From positions 1 through 64,000 of the IMG/VR virus record IMGVR_UViG_3300029288_000001: DNA of 64,000 nucleotides; one strand, 5' to 3'. This DNA comes from a virus. Taxonomy: Duplodnaviria; Caudoviricetes. A program made the position numbers and the translations under genes. Positions 12,925 to 59,370 of this stretch are shown here, piece by piece. Below the pieces are notes generated by a model. That model was not told where the DNA came from. It saw only the letters and a program-made list of their open reading frames with translations, and ran no database searches. How positions within the stretch are numbered: position 1 is the stretch's first letter; each line of letters begins with the position of its first letter.

Positions 12925-12982
12925 ACTTAAAAAATAAATAGATATAAACTAATAGTAAAGGTAATAAAAAAAGGAAAAAAAT

Positions 12983-13765
12983 ATGACGACAGTAATTTCG
13001 CATAGTATAGCAGGAACGGGACATTATAAGAGTCCACACGGGTTCGAGAACGACGCAAACGCCGCCGATCCGTATGGATGGACTACCACCGAAGTCTTGG
13101 GAACAATTGCAGTAGGTGCGTCTTACACAACTCATAATAAAGTAGTAGATCAGAGTCGTACTGCTACAGGCGGAGGAAATATTAGTTTAATAAATACATT
13201 CGTTTCAGCACAAGGATATGGTACTATAGAATGTTGGTTTGCAACTACCGATGTTACAAAAATTAATGTATTGGTTGTAAAAGGAGGTAGTGACAATGCT
13301 ATAATTATAGAACAAAGTGGAAGTAATTTTTACGCGTATAATGGCAATGGTATAGGAGGTGGAGCATACTCAGCAGCATTAGTTGCCGCCGCAAACGCAA
13401 CATGGTATCGTATACGAATCGATTTTGAATGTACAGCGGGTGGATATCTAGGCATGGGACAATATAAATGGAGTTTATGGATAAACGGTACAGAATATGA
13501 TAACGCAGGAGCGCATTGGGGTTTTACAAATAATCAGGCAACATTAACCACATTTTATACTCAATTAGCTTCTAATAACGCATATCATAGTTATATGGAT
13601 GGTGTTGGGTATTCATGGGATTCTGGTTACGCTCTTGGAGATAACAATACAGAGTACACTTCAGTTCCATACAAACGCGCTCTCGCTAGACGAGGTACGC
13701 ACGAGAGCCACCACGATTTTAGCTCATTTGACATTACTAAAATGAGCTTTCCACAACAATTATGA
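12983..13765 (+). CDS. ConA/LamG-like domain paralogue 1 of 5, with conserved termini
   Basis: MTTVISHSIAGTG head, GTIE-W, WYRIRIDF, and tail RRGTHESHHDFSSFDITKMSFPQQL. Confidence 0.75.
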   Translation: MTTVISHSIAGTGHYKSPHGFENDANAADPYGWTTTEVLGTIAVGASYTTHNKVVDQSRTATGGGNISLINTFVSAQGYGTIECWFATTDVTKINVLVVKGGSDNAIIIEQSGSNFYAYNGNGIGGGAYSAALVAAANATWYRIRIDFECTAGGYLGMGQYKWSLWINGTEYDNAGAHWGFTNNQATLTTFYTQLASNNAYHSYMDGVGYSWDSGYALGDNNTEYTSVPYKRALARRGTHESHHDFSSFDITKMSFPQQL

Positions 13766-13778
13766 GGAGATTATAAAA

Positions 13779-14531
13779 ATGACAACCGTAATTTCACATA
13801 GTATAGCGGGAACGGGTATATATAAAACTCCCATTGGTTTCGCGAACGACGCCAACGCCGCTTTTCCTTACAGGTGGACAAATCAGAGTACAGCAACTTC
13901 GACGACAACTGTTATAGCAAGCGCGGGCACGCATAATAAAGTGTTAGAATTATACGACGCTACGAATTTAACACGAGCGCAATGTTATTTCACTCTTTCG
14001 GCGGATGTAGTATCGGGAACAATCGAATGGTATTGGTCAATAAGCGCAATAAACAAGTTTAATTGCATTTGGCTAAAAGATTCGGCTGCGGCAGAAATGC
14101 TCTATTTAGAGAATCAAACTGGAACTTCGGTATATAGATGTTTAAGCTCGGGCGCTGTGTGGACAACGTTAATCAATCCCATCGTTGCAGCACAATGGTA
14201 TCATTTTAGAGTTGATTATGTCGTAGCAACTCATAAATGTAATGTGTATGTCGATGGCGTTCTAAAGGCAGATAATGTCGATTTCACAAACAACGGTGCG
14301 CTTGGTTTTTATAAATTTCATACAGATACTGCAAACACACCAAACGCATTCTACGTGTATTTCGATGCTATAGGAGTTACGGGCGTAAACGGTTACGCAA
14401 TTGGCGATAATCTAAATGCGTATACTTCCGTGGTCTACAAACGCGCTCTCGCTAGAAGGGGTACTCACGAGTCCCACCACGACTTCAGCGCGTTTGATAT
14501 TACCAAAATGAGCTTTCCACAACAAATATGA
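13779..14531 (+). CDS. ConA/LamG-like paralogue 2 of 5
   Basis: Same head and tail; WYHFRVDY...VYVDG. Confidence 0.75.
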   Translation: MTTVISHSIAGTGIYKTPIGFANDANAAFPYRWTNQSTATSTTTVIASAGTHNKVLELYDATNLTRAQCYFTLSADVVSGTIEWYWSISAINKFNCIWLKDSAAAEMLYLENQTGTSVYRCLSSGAVWTTLINPIVAAQWYHFRVDYVVATHKCNVYVDGVLKADNVDFTNNGALGFYKFHTDTANTPNAFYVYFDAIGVTGVNGYAIGDNLNAYTSVVYKRALARRGTHESHHDFSAFDITKMSFPQQI

Positions 14532-14543
14532 GGAGATAATTAT

Positions 14544-15299
14544 ATGACAACAGTAAAAGCGTATAGTATTGCGGGCACGGGATATTATAAAAGTAATACA
14601 TGGGGGTTCGAGAACGATGCGAACGCAGCATTGCCTTACCGTTGGACATCCGCATATGCAGGTACAAATTCAATACAAACAATCAATGCGAGCCAAACTA
14701 CGCATAATAAAATTTTTCAGTTAAAATGTGGAGACGGGGGTGCGTCTCATTGGTCTGGAATACAACTTACTATTAATATTAATAGTACTTTTGATGTTGA
14801 AATGTGGTGGTATCAAGACGCTGTTGCGGCGAATTGTTGGATTGGCTTTACCGATGAAGGTACTAACATTCTCGGATTAGGAGCTATTAGTAGTTTATGG
14901 AAAATGTTACACGGTGGATGGGATACAATTGGCACGGGAACGGCACCATTATTAAATACTTGGCAACATATAAGCATACGGAATATTAATTTTGATACGA
15001 ATACATACGATATTTATATTGATGGCGCTACTCTAGCAGGTGGTTCTACAGGGCTTCCGTTCGGAAATGCGGCTACTAAACTTACTAATGTTGTTATTAT
15101 ATCAGGCACTGATCTCAAATCACTTTATATAGATGGTCTTGCTTTTACTTGTTATGGCAATTACACGCGAGGCGACAACATAAACGCTTACGATACGGTA
15201 GTTTATCGTAACACCAAAGCCCGTAGAGGAACCCACGAAAGCCACCACGACTTTAGCGCGTTCGATATCACCAAAATGAGTTTTCCAAGCCAAATATAA
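14544..15299 (+). CDS. ConA/LamG-like paralogue 3 of 5
   Basis: Same tail; NTWQHISI...YDIYIDG...LYIDG. Confidence 0.75.
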   Translation: MTTVKAYSIAGTGYYKSNTWGFENDANAALPYRWTSAYAGTNSIQTINASQTTHNKIFQLKCGDGGASHWSGIQLTININSTFDVEMWWYQDAVAANCWIGFTDEGTNILGLGAISSLWKMLHGGWDTIGTGTAPLLNTWQHISIRNINFDTNTYDIYIDGATLAGGSTGLPFGNAATKLTNVVIISGTDLKSLYIDGLAFTCYGNYTRGDNINAYDTVVYRNTKARRGTHESHHDFSAFDITKMSFPSQI

Positions 15300-15313
15300 G
15301 AGGTAAATAAAAA

Positions 15314-16096
15314 ATGACAACTGTAATTTCACATAGTATAGCGGGAACAGGGCACTATAAATCGAACCACGGTTTCGTGAACGACGCGAACGGTGCCGAT
15401 CCGTATAGATGGACTGTATCAGAGGCAGGTGGAACAGTGGGTATAATTGCGTCTTCTACTACTCATAATAAAGTGTTAGAATTACACGATACGAGCGGAG
15501 CTGCGTTAGTATCGGCAAAAACCCCCGATTTTGATCAAGGATATGGCACCATAGAATATTGGTATAAAACATCTAAAATAGCAGATACACATAATTTTCT
15601 ATACGCGTATAGCGAAGACGATACTATGTTACTTAGATTATCTACGCTTAGTACAGGCGGAATTACAGGTTGGTATTATTATAACGGAGGAGGAAATGTT
15701 AAAATCACGGGATTTCCCGATCCAGCCGTTGATACGTGGTATCGCGTTCGAATAGACTTTGAATGTACCGCGGGAGGTTACTTAGGACTTGCACAATATA
15801 CGTGGAAGCTAACGGTTGATGGAACCGCTCAAACTTCCGCGGATCAAGGATTTTTAGCAAATAAACCAGAGTTTCATTACCTTACTTTCGAAACACATGC
15901 CGCACATAACACTTATTACGACTATATAGAAGCGCTAGGATTTTCATGGGATGGAAATTACACGATAGGCGATAACGCAACCGAGTATACTTCCGTGGTG
16001 TACAAACACGCCAAGGCAAGACGCGGAACCCACGAAAGCCACCACGATTTTAGCGCGTTTGATATCACCAAAATGTCTTTTCCGAGCCAAATATGA
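15314..16096 (+). CDS. ConA/LamG-like paralogue 4 of 5
   Basis: Same head and tail; WYRVRIDFECTAGGYLG. Confidence 0.75.
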   Translation: MTTVISHSIAGTGHYKSNHGFVNDANGADPYRWTVSEAGGTVGIIASSTTHNKVLELHDTSGAALVSAKTPDFDQGYGTIEYWYKTSKIADTHNFLYAYSEDDTMLLRLSTLSTGGITGWYYYNGGGNVKITGFPDPAVDTWYRVRIDFECTAGGYLGLAQYTWKLTVDGTAQTSADQGFLANKPEFHYLTFETHAAHNTYYDYIEALGFSWDGNYTIGDNATEYTSVVYKHAKARRGTHESHHDFSAFDITKMSFPSQI

Positions 16097-16108
16097 GGAG
16101 ATAATTAA

Positions 16109-16876
16109 ATGACATCAGTTATATCACATTCCATTGCGGGAACAGGTCATTATAAAGATCCGTATAGTTTTAAGAACGATGCAAATGCAGTAGCTCCGTA
16201 TTACGACGGTTGGACATTTACATTATCGGCTAGTTGCACGGCACAAATGATCGCCTCGGCGGGCACACATAATAAAGTGTTAGAACTCTACGATAATAAC
16301 GCTGCGGGAAACGCAGTAGCTAAATTTAGGATTGGTACTCAAACCAGCGGAACCATAGAATATTGGATCATGGTATCAAATTCTGATGTTATTATTCTTA
16401 TGCAAATGGACTCGGGTGACGCTTCAAATGGACCTAATTTACGGTTTAATGCCGACGCAACCATAGAATATAGAAATGCGGCTGCTGTATGGACAGACAT
16501 TGTAGGTTACGCCGCAAATACGTGGTATCGTATAAGAATTGATTTTGAATGTGGAGCAGGGGGATACGAAGGATTAGCGGCAGATCACATGCATGTTTAT
16601 ATTAATGACACGAAATATTCAGATCTTGAGTTTTATAAAGCAAAAGACAATTTAACTCGGTTATATATATCGTCAAATAATGTAGCGGTGGGAACCTATA
16701 CTTATATAGATGCAACTGGTTTTGTGGGTTTAAATGGATATATACTTGGCGATAATGCGACCCAATACACGACGATTCCCTATAAACATGTCAAAGCTAA
16801 ACGAGGTGCACACGAGAGCCACCACGACTTTTCGAGCTTCGATATCACTAAAATGAGCTTTCCGAGCCAGATATGA
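16109..16876 (+). CDS. ConA/LamG-like paralogue 5 of 5
   Basis: Same head and tail; WYRIRIDFECGAGGY. Confidence 0.75.
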   Translation: MTSVISHSIAGTGHYKDPYSFKNDANAVAPYYDGWTFTLSASCTAQMIASAGTHNKVLELYDNNAAGNAVAKFRIGTQTSGTIEYWIMVSNSDVIILMQMDSGDASNGPNLRFNADATIEYRNAAAVWTDIVGYAANTWYRIRIDFECGAGGYEGLAADHMHVYINDTKYSDLEFYKAKDNLTRLYISSNNVAVGTYTYIDATGFVGLNGYILGDNATQYTTIPYKHVKAKRGAHESHHDFSSFDITKMSFPSQI

Positions 16877-50203: not shown

Positions 50204-50500
50204 ACGATCAAAGTTGAAGATGTAATTCTATATTTCGAAAAAAATGTGCTCGTTAAAAACGATCTTTTAAGAGAAAATAAAGACCTCGTTATCCACGCGA
50301 TTCGCGACGTCCACGAATATATCGTGCGGAACTTTGGTATGATGCCTCCTATACGGAGTATAATCGCTCTAGCGCTGTATAAATCCACGACCTTCGCTAA
50401 ATACGAGATCGCAGGTATGGTCGGAATCACCCTTACTACCTTTAATAAATACATACGAAAGCTCCCTATTTCTTTTTCCGACTCCTTGGAGACCGTTTAG
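50204..50500 (+). CDS. TFB/TFIIB C-terminal cyclin-repeat-like HTH protein; probable ACG start (MIKVEDVILY)
   Basis: P.IRSIIALALY....KYEIAGMVGITLTTFNKYIRKL resembles the TFB cyclin/HTH region. In-frame TGA TTT TTT ACG. Confidence 0.5.
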   Translation, partial: TIKVEDVILYFEKNVLVKNDLLRENKDLVIHAIRDVHEYIVRNFGMMPPIRSIIALALYKSTTFAKYEIAGMVGITLTTFNKYIRKLPISFSDSLETV

Positions 50501-50984
50501 ACGCTTTCTTGGGCTTCTCCTCTACTTTATCCACCGTAGGACGAGGACGGGCTACTTCCATAAAGTCCTCGGGACAAGTCTTCTCTATCGGAGGAATGGC
50601 TGCCGTTGGAGGCTCAGTCGTAATGTTGTTGTTCTCTAAAGGATTGCCAAAAGCGTCAACAGCAGGATTTATACCCGTTCTTATATATGTGATTGTGGGA
50701 AGTCCTGGAAGTCCTGTTCTTATTGTAGGCTCTGTCGCTACCACTGATGTTGGTGGCTCTCGCACTACTCTATAAACTGGTTCTGGCGGAGGTAGTATAA
50801 CGGGCTCTGGTTCGGGTTCTGGAGGAGGTGGCGGAGGCGGTGGTGGAGGTCGTATCGCTACTGGGTCGGGTAATGCTTCCATTAAAATATGATAGATGAC
50901 TTTAGCCGTGCCGTTAAGGGGAAGCTCGTGATATACTGCGATCTCGCGGTTGTTTAACACGCGAAACTCTCCTCGGCAGTGCAT
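50466..50984 (-). CDS. Proline-rich protein with EKTCPEDFMEV motif
   Basis: Poly-Pro tract and basic tail. Confidence 0.6.
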   Translation of the reverse strand: MHCRGEFRVLNNREIAVYHELPLNGTAKVIYHILMEALPDPVAIRPPPPPPPPPPEPEPEPVILPPPEPVYRVVREPPTSVVATEPTIRTGLPGLPTITYIRTGINPAVDAFGNPLENNNITTEPPTAAIPPIEKTCPEDFMEVARPRPTVDKVEEKPKKASKRSPRSRKKK

Positions 50985-51197
50985 CGATAGTTCCTTGTAA
51001 GGAGACCGTCTCTGTCGCAGCGGATTAACCTCTCTCCGTAGTATTTGTTCGTGCCTTGATAGCGAAGGCGTTGTCGTATTTCGATCAGTTCGATTGGGGC
51101 TCGGTCGTCCACATCGATCGCGTAGAACTCGTCTGGAATAACCAGCACATCTTCGCGCCTCGCCCCCGACACTAGGAAATCGATCTCGCTTGCGGTT

Positions 51198-51488
51198 TTA
51201 AGTACCATCTCTCTTTACCTCTATGAAGTCTTCGGGACAGGTTTTCTCCCGCTCTGGTTCTTTTTTCGTCTCTTCGACCGTCTCGTCTAGATCGAGCGAG
51301 GTTCTAAGTTTTTCGATAAACTCTTCCGCGAGACGCTTTCCAAAACCCTTCTTATCGTAGAACTCGAGTTCCTTCTCTATTTTATATCGTCTTGGAAAAT
51401 AGGCTTTCTTAAACTCGTCGAGACTGTGGAACTCGCGCACATCGTCGTTAATATCCATATAATTTCCCATATTTCTCTTCCATGACAT
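51198..51488 (-). CDS. Hypothetical protein with EKTCPEDFIEV motif
   Basis: ORF track. Confidence 0.6.
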   Translation of the reverse strand: MSWKRNMGNYMDINDDVREFHSLDEFKKAYFPRRYKIEKELEFYDKKGFGKRLAEEFIEKLRTSLDLDETVEETKKEPEREKTCPEDFIEVKRDGT

Positions 51489-55646: not shown

Positions 55647-56724
55647 TTCTTTTTCGTCTCCTTTATTTTCTTTCTTTTAATCCTACACACCCAATCTTCG
55701 TCGCAGTAGCTCCTATATCCGCATCTATCGCACGGAATAAACAACGGAAATAAGTTCTTCTTAGCCCATTCCTGCCCGTGTGGCAGCGGTTCTTTCTTCT
55801 CGGTCATTTCTTCTTTTCCTCATCTTTATATAATTTTTTTCCTAATTCTCGATTAATTTTACTGTCAAAAATATCTAGGATCGGGTGTAGTTTCCCTTTC
55901 TGGCGCAGATCGTTAATATAATCGTCAATAACATCGTCTATATTAGGTTCTCCCGCTAATCTCCGTATTCTTCGCGCTCTTACTTCGTCGAACTCTTTTC
56001 CCAAGAACTTTTTACTCATTCCTTCTCGCCTACTCGTATTATGTATTTACAGATCGGACATTGATATAATCTAACTCCAAACCACATCTCTCCTTGATCG
56101 TCTCTTGACAATGGTATTAAGTCTTTATCGCATTTATGACAATATAATCCAATTGTAATAATCTTCTCGATCGAAAAGCTCATTCCTACCACTCCCAATC
56201 GTCAAATACTGATCGTTTTTTTGGAGGGTCATTAAACCCTTCCATATCTTGTATGATCTCATCTAGAATATCCTCAACGGTTGTCGCCTTCTTGCACTTA
56301 TCGCACCAATAGATCCATTTCTTTTCGTTATCTTTAAATCTTCCTCGATGCACTGTACCTCCGCAAGGACATGGTTTTTTTTGATCGAATAAATCGTTAT
56401 AATTCTCGGTCATTCCTTAACCTCCTCTCTCTAAGTCCATATCCGCCCAATCGGCTTCGCACTCGTAATAATCGTCCGTTTCCTTGAAATTCTTGCATTT
56501 AAACTTTCGCTTTACCATCCATAATGGCATGGTATACGCGCTGCACCAATCGGTGGAGTCTGGACCTTCTGCGTGGCTGCACCGCATGCATAACTGGGCG
56601 CTGTTGTGCCACCTACCGTAGGCTTCTTGCTCGTCTTCTTCATACCTCCTCTGGCATTCGCTACACCACTCGCCCGGCTTGTCCACTCCGTTCTTTCCGC
56701 AATTATCGCATTCAAAGGACATGT

Positions 56725-57024
56725 TCACACCTTCTCGTTTAATTTCCATATTTCTATGATGTTCTTCTTTTCGAACTGGACGCGATCTCCATAGTGTCCA
56801 TAATCGGAGGAGTTTATTGTTCTATTGGCTAACAATCCTTCTATCTTATCGCCGTTTATTTGTGCGACGCTTATCCATAGTCTCTCGCCGTATTTCCCGT
56901 CGTCGTCGGTAAGGATTATCTTAACGAGATCGGCTACTCTAACGGCGTCCTTTTCTTCCTTGGAAGGTATCCAGAAGGTATCTGGGTACTTCCTATGATT
57001 TTCTTCTTCATCTACTATTTTCGT
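56725..57024 (-). CDS. DUF2314/YegJ-like protein (99 aa), ACG start, not in the ORF track
   Basis: (M)KIVDEEENHRKYPDTFWIPSKEEK..VRVADLVKII...GERLWISV...IEGLLAN...GDRVQFEKKNIIEI. No canonical start until a late TTG; preceded by in-frame TAA TAA CCT. Confidence 0.8.
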   Translation of the reverse strand, partial: TKIVDEEENHRKYPDTFWIPSKEEKDAVRVADLVKIILTDDDGKYGERLWISVAQINGDKIEGLLANRTINSSDYGHYGDRVQFEKKNIIEIWKLNEKV

Positions 57025-57608
57025 AGGTTATTATCCCCCCAATAAAAGTTTTCTCATTTCTTCTGGCGTGAGCTCGTTACGAAAGATCTCCTCTCGAATT
57101 AGTCTTATCTCTTCTCTAAGATCGCGGATGATCGCGTTCGATTTGGCTAATTCTCCTTGTAAGCGTTCGTTCTCGAACTTTAATTTTTTATAGGCTAGTT
57201 CCAATTCTTGATATAATCGAATGTTGTTGGAATGGTATTGTTTTGGAGTCATTCGTTCCCCTCCAGATAATCGTCGTAGGTGTCGTTGGAACACTCGCTT
57301 TCGTGCGCGTCCCAACAATCGAAACATAGATCCGCGTCGCAATACTTACAATTATAAGATTTGGAGAGATCCTTTCCGCATTCCGCGCATTTTATAGGCG
57401 GATAATATTTGGTTTTCGCCATTATATTTCACCTCATTCTAAATATAACTTGGTGTAGTAGTCGTCTCCGTTAATACCGTGTTTCTCTAAGAGGTAAGTC
57501 TCTAAATCCAAGAGTATATCGTCTATCACATTGTGGATACCCTTCAAATCAGAAACTTCTTTCTCTTCTTTAAATTCTTCAAACTCTATTTTTATCTTTC
57601 TTACCATT

Positions 57609-58629: not shown

Positions 58630-59370
58630 TTATTCCTCTTCTCCTCCGTTAATAATATCGTCCATTCCCATTTTCTTTAACCTCCATTTAATTAAGAACT
58701 TCTCGAACGGCACTGGGTCGGGCTTCTCGGGCAAGAAAGTATGAGTATACGCCTCGTTAAGCTTGTTCTTCAAGTCCCAGAGCTCTTCCTCCTTGGTAAT
58801 TTCCACCTTCTCGAACATGGGCTTCCCCCACACAAATACGTTGATTCCGAACTTTAACGATCGTCCGATGGTGTTAAGCTTCTTCTTATAAATTAACGAG
58901 TTTCTGTCGATCTCTCTCGTGGGAGCCTTTTCGCCTTTTCTTACCTTTCCCGTGCGCGAGCCCGTGCCAGTTATGAAGTGGTAGATGTTGTGCTCTGCCA
59001 TTCCATTGATCGAGTGAAAGCAGTTCTTCGCAATGGTCTTAATCGCGATCTCTCGTAGCTCGCGCAGCACGGAGCGATATTCGTTTACCACGATCGGAGA
59101 GGTGACCGCCCATAGATAATTTACATTACCCTTAAGGACTTCGCGCACACAGTTTCCTAGATCGCACGATTGCACGTCCGATTCTCGCTCTACGCCGTTG
59201 TAGGTCTCCTTACCCTTATATTCTCGGTTCCGCCTCGTCTGTTGGAGAAGGAAGTCCCTCGAGTCCATAATATAAACCTCGTTGATGTCCAGGTCTGAGG
59301 TCGGTTTTTCCATGCCCCACATATGACTGCCTGTTATAGTTCTAAACGCTAATAAATCGTTCTCTTTCGT
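58630..59370 (-). CDS. Pol-beta-superfamily nucleotidyltransferase (YcgL/Nuc-transf-like); non-AUG start (ACG 59370 or ATA 59373)
   Basis: The RTITGSHMWGMEKPTSDLD signature has its GSH upstream of the first ATG; KGNVNYLWAVTSP; in-frame stop just upstream. Confidence 0.85.
   Translation of the reverse strand, partial: TKENDLLAFRTITGSHMWGMEKPTSDLDINEVYIMDSRDFLLQQTRRNREYKGKETYNGVERESDVQSCDLGNCVREVLKGNVNYLWAVTSPIVVNEYRSVLRELREIAIKTIAKNCFHSINGMAEHNIYHFITGTGSRTGKVRKGEKAPTREIDRNSLIYKKKLNTIGRSLKFGINVFVWGKPMFEKVEITKEEELWDLKNKLNEAYTHTFLPEKPDPVPFEKFLIKWRLKKMGMDDIINGGEEE

Follow-up and report, generated by a model that had tools for sequence, protein, structure and literature searches.

The window, that is the whole stretch of 64,000 nucleotides analysed here, corresponds to the first 64 kb of a virus record from a landfill metagenome, which is complete at 224,826 bp and carries direct terminal repeats. 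On its minus strand, between an upstream gene with no assigned function and a downstream Cys-rich gene, lies a small gene of the DUF2314/Imm34 family (Table 1). A 99-codon DUF2314-like frame had been proposed at this place in a preliminary description, and it is indeed present, on the minus strand, which that description left unstated. From stop to stop the frame extends from 57027 to 56725 and contains 100 sense codons followed by TGA (56727-56725). The leader GGA TAA TAA CCT ACG AAA ATA was found on the minus strand exactly as it had been quoted, and so were the three motifs cited for the frame. Scanning revealed no in-frame ATG, the sole GTG is the last sense codon, and the first TTG corresponds to codon 64 of 99 counted from the ACG, in keeping with its announced location about two-thirds of the way in. 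The upstream gene terminates with GGG GGA TAA, and the ACG is situated 6 nt past this stop, a coupling distance. The Shine-Dalgarno-like (SD) segment GGGGGGA forms a duplex of -10.9 kcal/mol with the anti-SD, which places it in the top quartile of ATG genes by strength. The predicted RNA structure of the leader shows nothing unusual (z -0.6). At the locus no substitution or indel is seen in the Logan assembly made from the run that is probably the source; this assembly derives from the same sample, is not independent and tests the assembly only. Another contig of the same run, 4,077 bp in size, matches 35 nt of the window (56994-57028) with two differences, and this match may stem from a CRISPR spacer or a related element, or may be due to chance.

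Table 1. Position of the genes and start-related features in the window.
Feature	Coordinates	Strand	Supporting observations
DUF2314/Imm34-family gene, putative ACG start to TGA, 99 codons	56725..57024	-	Pfam PF10077; P0002, 68% identity; AlphaFold; fold matches
Tandem in-frame stops TAA TAA	57028..57033	-	First TAA (57033-57031) terminates the upstream gene; second is 57030-57028
SD-like GGGGGGA, 9 nt before the ACG, within the 3'-terminal codons of the upstream gene	57034..57040	-	Anti-SD duplex
ACG, inferred start codon	57022..57024	-	Base-for-base alignment with the ATG of L001:674; start-context score 3.3
First in-frame TTG (listed as Leu65), rejected start	56833..56835	-	Context score 0.8; 23.6 vs 111 bits
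Upstream gene, ATG start, no assigned function	57031..57252	-	Sister-virus orthologue directly abuts the downstream gene
Downstream Cys-rich gene	56417..56722	-	ATG 2 nt past the DUF2314 stop; SD-like AAGGTG within the DUF2314 3' end
RlaP nucleotidyltransferase gene, putative ACG start at 59370	58630..59370	-	ACG also in sister virus L014

The translation of the frame matched the Pfam DUF2314 profile (PF10077) over residues 17-92 with 26.9 bits, for a cut-off of 22 (E 5.6e-6). The family pattern was said to be recognisable from the first residues, and 994 relatives at E<=0.001, mostly matching from query residues 1-9, bear this out. In an alignment of 86 sequences all nine invariant or near-invariant residues of the family are kept in the window protein, eight of them upstream of the TTG, and E48, R49 and W51 are near-invariant across these homologues. 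The ExxW motif of the family corresponds to E48-R-L-W51 and its C-terminal Asp to D81. AlphaFold predicts with a pLDDT of 93.6 a five-stranded SH3/Tudor-like beta-barrel with N-terminal helices, and the TM scores between this model and Atlas DUF2314 clusters are 0.86-0.88. Matches to Tudor/SH3-like folds were obtained with Z values of 5-7.4 and rmsd of 2-3 A across 53-72 residues, which is weak evidence on its own as the fold is a common one. The N-terminal two thirds of the protein, encoded upstream of the TTG, is needed for the barrel as predicted. A start at the TTG (56835; score 0.8) was rejected because its 36-aa product, which reaches 23.6 bits with the family HMM, would be without most of the barrel.

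A single close homologue was found, P0002, on contig L001 of a sister virus, which is represented in SRR12486999. In L001 the two genes that flank the DUF2314 gene in the window are directly adjacent, and the DUF2314 gene is found at another location, among other small ORFs; it is therefore a movable, independent gene rather than the tail of a read-through product. A fusion with the upstream gene by read-through was rejected on account of the tandem stops and of this separate placement. The double stop had been taken to exclude read-through and thereby to impose near-cognate initiation: the first part stands, since read-through is very unlikely, whereas the second goes too far, the stops alone not being sufficient to force it, and other starts were tested for that reason. 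Comparison of the window gene with the L001 gene gave a dN/dS of 0.26 for the whole gene and of 0.28 upstream of the TTG (bootstrap 0.10-0.63), both indicative of purifying selection, although such pairwise values average over both lineages; 32 of the 62 differences fall at third positions. With a family HMM built without either viral copy, the window protein scored 111 bits and the ATG-bearing sister 103.5 bits, the members of the HMM having been picked by likeness to the window copy, which biases the comparison toward it. A lack of homology upstream of the TTG, or decay relative to homologues, would have spoken against an intact gene. Homology spans the entire region upstream, and neither dN/dS nor the HMM scores reveal decay.

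In the alignment of the N-termini, the ATG of the L001 gene falls exactly on the window ACG, and the two leaders have GGATAA in common. The start-context score is 3.3 at the ACG; the TTG scores 0.8, an ATG at 57011, which is out of frame, -0.9 and an in-frame ATA at 57018 -1.7 (the median of ATG starts is 4.3 and the random 95th percentile 3.0). Initiation at this ATA, a codon that serves as a start in the host order described below, or at the ATG, located 13 nt downstream of the ACG and ahead of a purine-rich run in which a -1 frameshift would restore the frame, is very unlikely, as both score poorly and lie too far from the SD, and as the match of the homologue in the DUF2314 frame begins already at codon 2, before the ATG is reached. 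With the ACG placed on the ATG of the homologue, a strong SD and no decay, near-cognate initiation at the ACG is the best reading, as had been proposed, and these sequence comparisons indicate that the gene is intact and very probably translated from position 57024. The ACG allele is present in one genome only. Because the only close homologue has an ATG, the DUF2314 gene alone leaves room for a recent start loss, in which an ATG-to-ACG change would have silenced a movable accessory gene too recently for decay to be seen; the change is a single transition in the same direction as the CpG bias of the virus.

Start codons across the viral genome were investigated at gene junctions, in genes chosen by codon usage alone and in a segment from -20 to +40 nt around each upstream stop. 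An in-frame ACG was present at 32 of the 54 junctions without ATG, versus 40 of the 198 with ATG (odds ratio 5.7, p=1e-7). GTG, TTG, CTG, ATA, ATT, ATC, ACA, ACC, GCG, TCG and CCG showed no enrichment at ATG-less junctions; ACT was enriched nominally only (p=0.018), and ACG alone survived correction. The excess amounts to about 27 genes (approximately 25-30), or some 10% of the testable viral genes. The best ribosome-binding position, picked blind to the codon, landed on ACG at 16 of the 54 ATG-less junctions. The ACGs of these junctions have leader scores (median 4.0) similar to those of ATG leaders (median 4.3, p=0.71), and internal ACGs, with a median context score of -0.3, differ from the start-like ones at p=2e-5. 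Two of the ACG-start genes match a PHROG profile from profile position 2 at residue 2. A model-free count of the triplets following SD 5-mers showed enrichment of ATG only and no ACG signal, anchors inside genes having diluted ACG. The DUF2314 gene is outside the tested junctions and is therefore independent of the junction statistic. Single candidate ATA, CTG and TTG starts were also seen behind good SDs (G000 127976-128170, 160307-160678 and 147219-147452, respectively). In the sister virus, L001:2516-2725 is an uncalled Cys-rich gene with an ACG behind GGGAGTGG, and an unrelated ATG gene of the window follows a leader nearly identical to this GGGAGTGG leader.

As judged from its homologues, the RlaP gene of the window is the second and stronger case of a putative ACG start. 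The ACG is found both in the window and in L014, at 75% identity and behind a different leader, and ATG takes its place in three distant relatives, L018, L020 and L021. The RlaP protein as called is truncated in both viruses. The preliminary description had presented the DUF2314 gene as the cleanest single test case for ACG initiation, which was overstated: RlaP, with ACG in two viruses, and the host gene atpC described below, with ACG in 15-16 genomes, are cleaner. The DUF2314 gene is nevertheless a good test case and reporter candidate.

Where internal ACG codons were aligned with homologues (66 columns), the homologous residue is Thr in 26 and Met in none, and ATG aligns with Met 44 times, so that the code is not reassigned. 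The idea that ACG stands for Met throughout, or that the ACG is an assembly error, can be discarded with near certainty: reassignment, in favour of which the abundance of the codon might be invoked (ACG is the commonest Thr codon of the virus), is refuted by these columns, and an assembly error, for which one apparent 1-bp error elsewhere in the window (50970) offers a precedent, is opposed by the agreement of the re-assembly at the DUF2314 locus and by the fact that errors would not target start positions.

The virus shows a marked dinucleotide bias, with an observed/expected ratio of 1.43 for CG and 0.75 for TG; the sister virus also has an excess of CG and a deficit of TG. The CpG excess and TpG/CpA deficit are seen in G000, L001 and L014, also at synonymous sites, where the frequency of C is 0.69 before G versus 0.41 otherwise, and that of G is 0.62 after C versus 0.37 otherwise. 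Distant, CG-poor contigs bearing RlaP use ATG at 75 of 81 junctions and have no ACG start (among these contigs, L018 and L038 may be one virus). We propose that the bias from TG/CA to CG supplies ATG-to-ACG changes in the virus and that the host machinery tolerates them, which is the simplest account of the data. The dominance of ACG over ATT or ATA in the virus is probably due to this general bias. At the tetranucleotide level ACGT (0.15), CCGG (0.16) and GTAC (0.28) are strongly avoided in G000, L001 and L014, and GATC is in excess (1.53). T never follows the ACG among 25 well-scored ACG starts. Vsr and C5 methylase were sought in the virus, with no match over cut-off.

The virus encodes MCM, a Cdc6-like AAA protein and RadA, and one of its tRNAs has a position-37 intron; it is therefore archaeal. 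The viral RadA has its named top matches exclusively in Asgard archaea, mostly in Promethearchaeota/Lokiarchaeia, with identities of 70-75%. Because of these matches, and thus from gene similarity alone, the virus probably infects Asgard archaea, with Promethearchaeota as the likely host group. Host genes were sampled from the order of a Promethearchaeota genome reached via RadA (L050-L080, 31 genomes; L191-L220). The gene for the A-type ATP synthase subunit C (atpC, PF01992) starts at ACG in 15 of 29 genomes, at ATG in 12 and at TTG and ATT in one each; a 16th genome has the ACG at the same place plus an ATG four codons upstream. The start is always exactly ACG, never ACA, ACT or ACC, in DNA of about 25% GC. 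It follows GGTG or GGTGA, and the sequence further upstream is unconserved and often contains stops. The ACG persists among proteins separated by several tenths of a change per site. At the same position the start switches to ATG or TTG, and two near-identical proteins differ by ACG versus ATG; a tree of the starts implies three changes and, having no outgroup, does not give their order. Other genes of the order also depart from ATG. ATP synthase subunit K starts at ACG in 3 of 30 cases and uS4 at ATA or ATC in 6 of 24. The starts of aIF1/SUI1 (n=30) are ATT in 19, ATC in two, ATA in four, TTG in two, GTG in one and ATG in only two, and in 20 of these genes a canonical alternative is precluded by an in-frame stop located just upstream. 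The junction test applied to 400 kb of the host genome G006 gave no ACG signal, and GTG and TTG were seen; 18 junctions were ATG-less, which provides low power. On the whole, the virus appears to use ACG starts far more often than the sampled host core genes do.

These observations make a recent loss of the DUF2314 start distinctly unlikely. Such a loss would leave unexplained the approximately 27 excess ACG cases with intact SDs, the RlaP ACG kept across 25% protein divergence and the ACG of the essential host atpC. If the host reads ACG, moreover, the mutation would not be silencing, and no decay was seen.

We propose the following model for initiation at the DUF2314 ACG. The small subunit would pair with the SD, probably re-initiating after the stop of the upstream gene. 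The ordinary Met-tRNAi (anticodon CAU) would be accepted on ACG with a C:A mismatch at the middle position, and this would be tolerated because the proofreading of the start codon by aIF1/aIF2 is permissive in Promethearchaeota. The product would start with Met, its output being probably below that from AUG, and neither recoding nor a viral factor would be required. In E. coli, ACG belongs to a group of codons initiating at 0.1-1% of the AUG level (bioRxiv 10.1101/063800). In Sulfolobus and Pyrococcus aIF1 is the fidelity factor (PMC6237735, PMC4705826), and in Sulfolobus it discriminates against AUU (PMC4705826). An efficient use of ACG would therefore need an unusual permissiveness. The use of ACG in atpC suggests an efficiency well above the 0.1-1% level of E. 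coli.

The virus itself might relax start choice during infection, through an altered initiator-like tRNA-Met or an unrecognised factor acting on aIF1. Searches with ARAGORN and Rfam identified viral tRNAs for His, Glu, Pro, Ile, Ser, Cys, Leu and Met(CAU) only; besides the tRNA-Met(CAU), G000 carries a tRNA-Ile(UAU) and an intron-bearing tRNA-Ser. The tRNA-Met(CAU) (G000 170868-170944; L007:6868-6944) is initiator-like, with a T-arm and an A1:U72 pair similar to those of the host initiator, and its anticodon arm is altered, with two rather than three G-C pairs beside the loop and G37/C38. This tRNA, together with the apparent excess of viral ACG starts over those of the sampled host core genes, would fit an effect of the virus, but the anticodon remains CAU. 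No credible tRNA with a CGU anticodon was found by the same two programs, CGU appearing only in relaxed-threshold matches with implausible long introns. The complete virus record holds no homologue of aIF1 or aIF1A and no match to aIF2-beta over cut-off. As host genes use ACG without the virus, and as the CpG bias explains the viral excess more simply, a viral relaxation of start choice is unlikely; the tRNA-Met could contribute to ACG initiation without being required.

The host aIF1 genes recall the autoregulation of infC and eIF1, in which a start-fidelity factor has a weak start. The ACG gene of the window differs from these in that it encodes a DUF2314 protein and not a start-fidelity factor. 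One may imagine that ACG starts form a regulated class, the stringency of Promethearchaeota being set by aIF1, the gene of which starts mostly at AUU, AUC or AUA, and being lowered by the virus (through the variant tRNA or by depletion of aIF1), which would raise the expression of about 10% of its genes including DUF2314. We consider this extension rather improbable.

C-to-U editing of the mRNA would turn ACG into AUG, and ACG, the substrate of such editing, is the only codon enriched in the virus. We nevertheless regard editing as highly improbable, since PF00383 (dCMP/cytidine deaminase family) was not found in the complete virus record and since the ATT, ATC and ATA starts of the host order are beyond repair by a C-to-U change. 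One permissive ribosome, by comparison, would explain all the cases.

As a member of its family, the DUF2314 protein is unremarkable. DUF2314 corresponds to Imm34, a family predicted to confer immunity in polymorphic toxin systems and characterised by a mostly-beta fold, an ExxW motif and a C-terminal Asp (Zhang et al., PMC3482391), and the N-domain of P. aeruginosa PA2504, which is of DUF2314 type, has been modelled as Tudor-like (PMC8466066). The window protein resembles these in its score over the Pfam cut-off, its ExxW motif and C-terminal Asp and its mostly-beta Tudor/SH3-like predicted fold. Unlike Imm34 of polymorphic toxin systems, it is a stand-alone protein of an archaeal virus, encoded among small unknown ORFs, with no Imm33 fusion and outside a polyimmunity locus. 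No toxin partner or polyimmunity locus was seen around the window gene, the immediate neighbours having no Pfam family above cut-off; NADAR and RlaP are encoded nearby. Stand-alone DUF2314 relatives are also found in bacterial phages. The most likely role, suggested here only tentatively, would be that of a small protein-binding module of immunity or counter-defence.

A few other features of the genome were recorded. At window position 50970, a Logan contig has one extra base which probably joins the frames 50954-51214 and 50466-51197, so that the window likely contains a 1-bp assembly error there. A short dispersed repeat with a GAAGATTTCAT core is present at gene ends and leaders (window 50466-51255; G000 ~86980, 87850 and 207543), and the segment 51215-51255 of the window is duplicated exactly at another place in the genome. 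Positions 12968-16876 of the window, in a structural-looking region of the plus strand, encode five paralogues arranged in tandem, each about 255-265 aa long and nearly identical to the others at the N-terminus. Long arrays of a GCGAGCCA-containing repeat at G000 ~69900-70600 and 94400-96800 are a source of spurious open frames.

Gene callers miss or truncate proteins with ACG starts: the DUF2314 protein of the window is absent from a set of 5.8 billion proteins, and RlaP is truncated in both viruses. Relatives of the DUF2314 protein, and of RlaP and Thg1 as single proteins, were sought in IMG/VR and JGI metagenomes, where no related loci were found. The interest of the case comes from the lineage-wide habit rather than from the DUF2314 protein. 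Routine initiation at a codon ignored by gene finders seems to be a property of the ribosomes of Asgard archaea, which among prokaryotes are the closest relatives of eukaryotes, and this bears on the evolution of strict AUG selection.

ACG initiation is known in eukaryotic viruses, with VP2 of AAV and C' of Sendai virus as examples. The situation inferred for the present virus is similar in that a normal Met-tRNAi would occupy ACG in the P site. It differs in that the ACG appears, from the sequence, to be positioned by an SD and not reached by leaky scanning, and in that, rather than giving rise to a minor isoform, it would serve as the only start for about 10% of the viral genes and for essential host genes. 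In a yeast CYC7 test, GUG, ACG, AUU and UUG were the strongest non-AUG starts, at 0.4-0.5% (PMC4705826), and the initiation core formed by e/aIF1, e/aIF1A and e/aIF2 is common to archaea and eukaryotes (PMC6412873). The usual archaeal starts are AUG, GUG and UUG, and ACG is not among them (PMC4705826); in E. coli low-level initiation occurs from most codons (bioRxiv 10.1101/063800). The viral starts resemble prokaryotic alternative starts in being non-AUG and SD-dependent and, probably, in giving mostly an N-terminal Met. GUG and UUG are the general alternative starts of prokaryotes, and bacterial infC starts at AUU. The viral starts depart from these by a mismatch at the second position and by the enrichment of ACG, and not of GTG or TTG, at ATG-less junctions. 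In plant organelles, C-to-U editing turns ACG into an AUG start. The likeness lies in a genomic ACG where the homologue has ATG, the difference in the absence of a PF00383 deaminase from the virus and in the use of ATT, ATC and ATA by the host order. A literature search, from which most subscription journals were out of reach, returned no description of such an ACG-start habit. The phenomenon is known in kind from eukaryotes, their viruses and a few bacterial genes; what distinguishes the present case is an SD-positioned start with a second-position mismatch, which serves as the sole start and is common.
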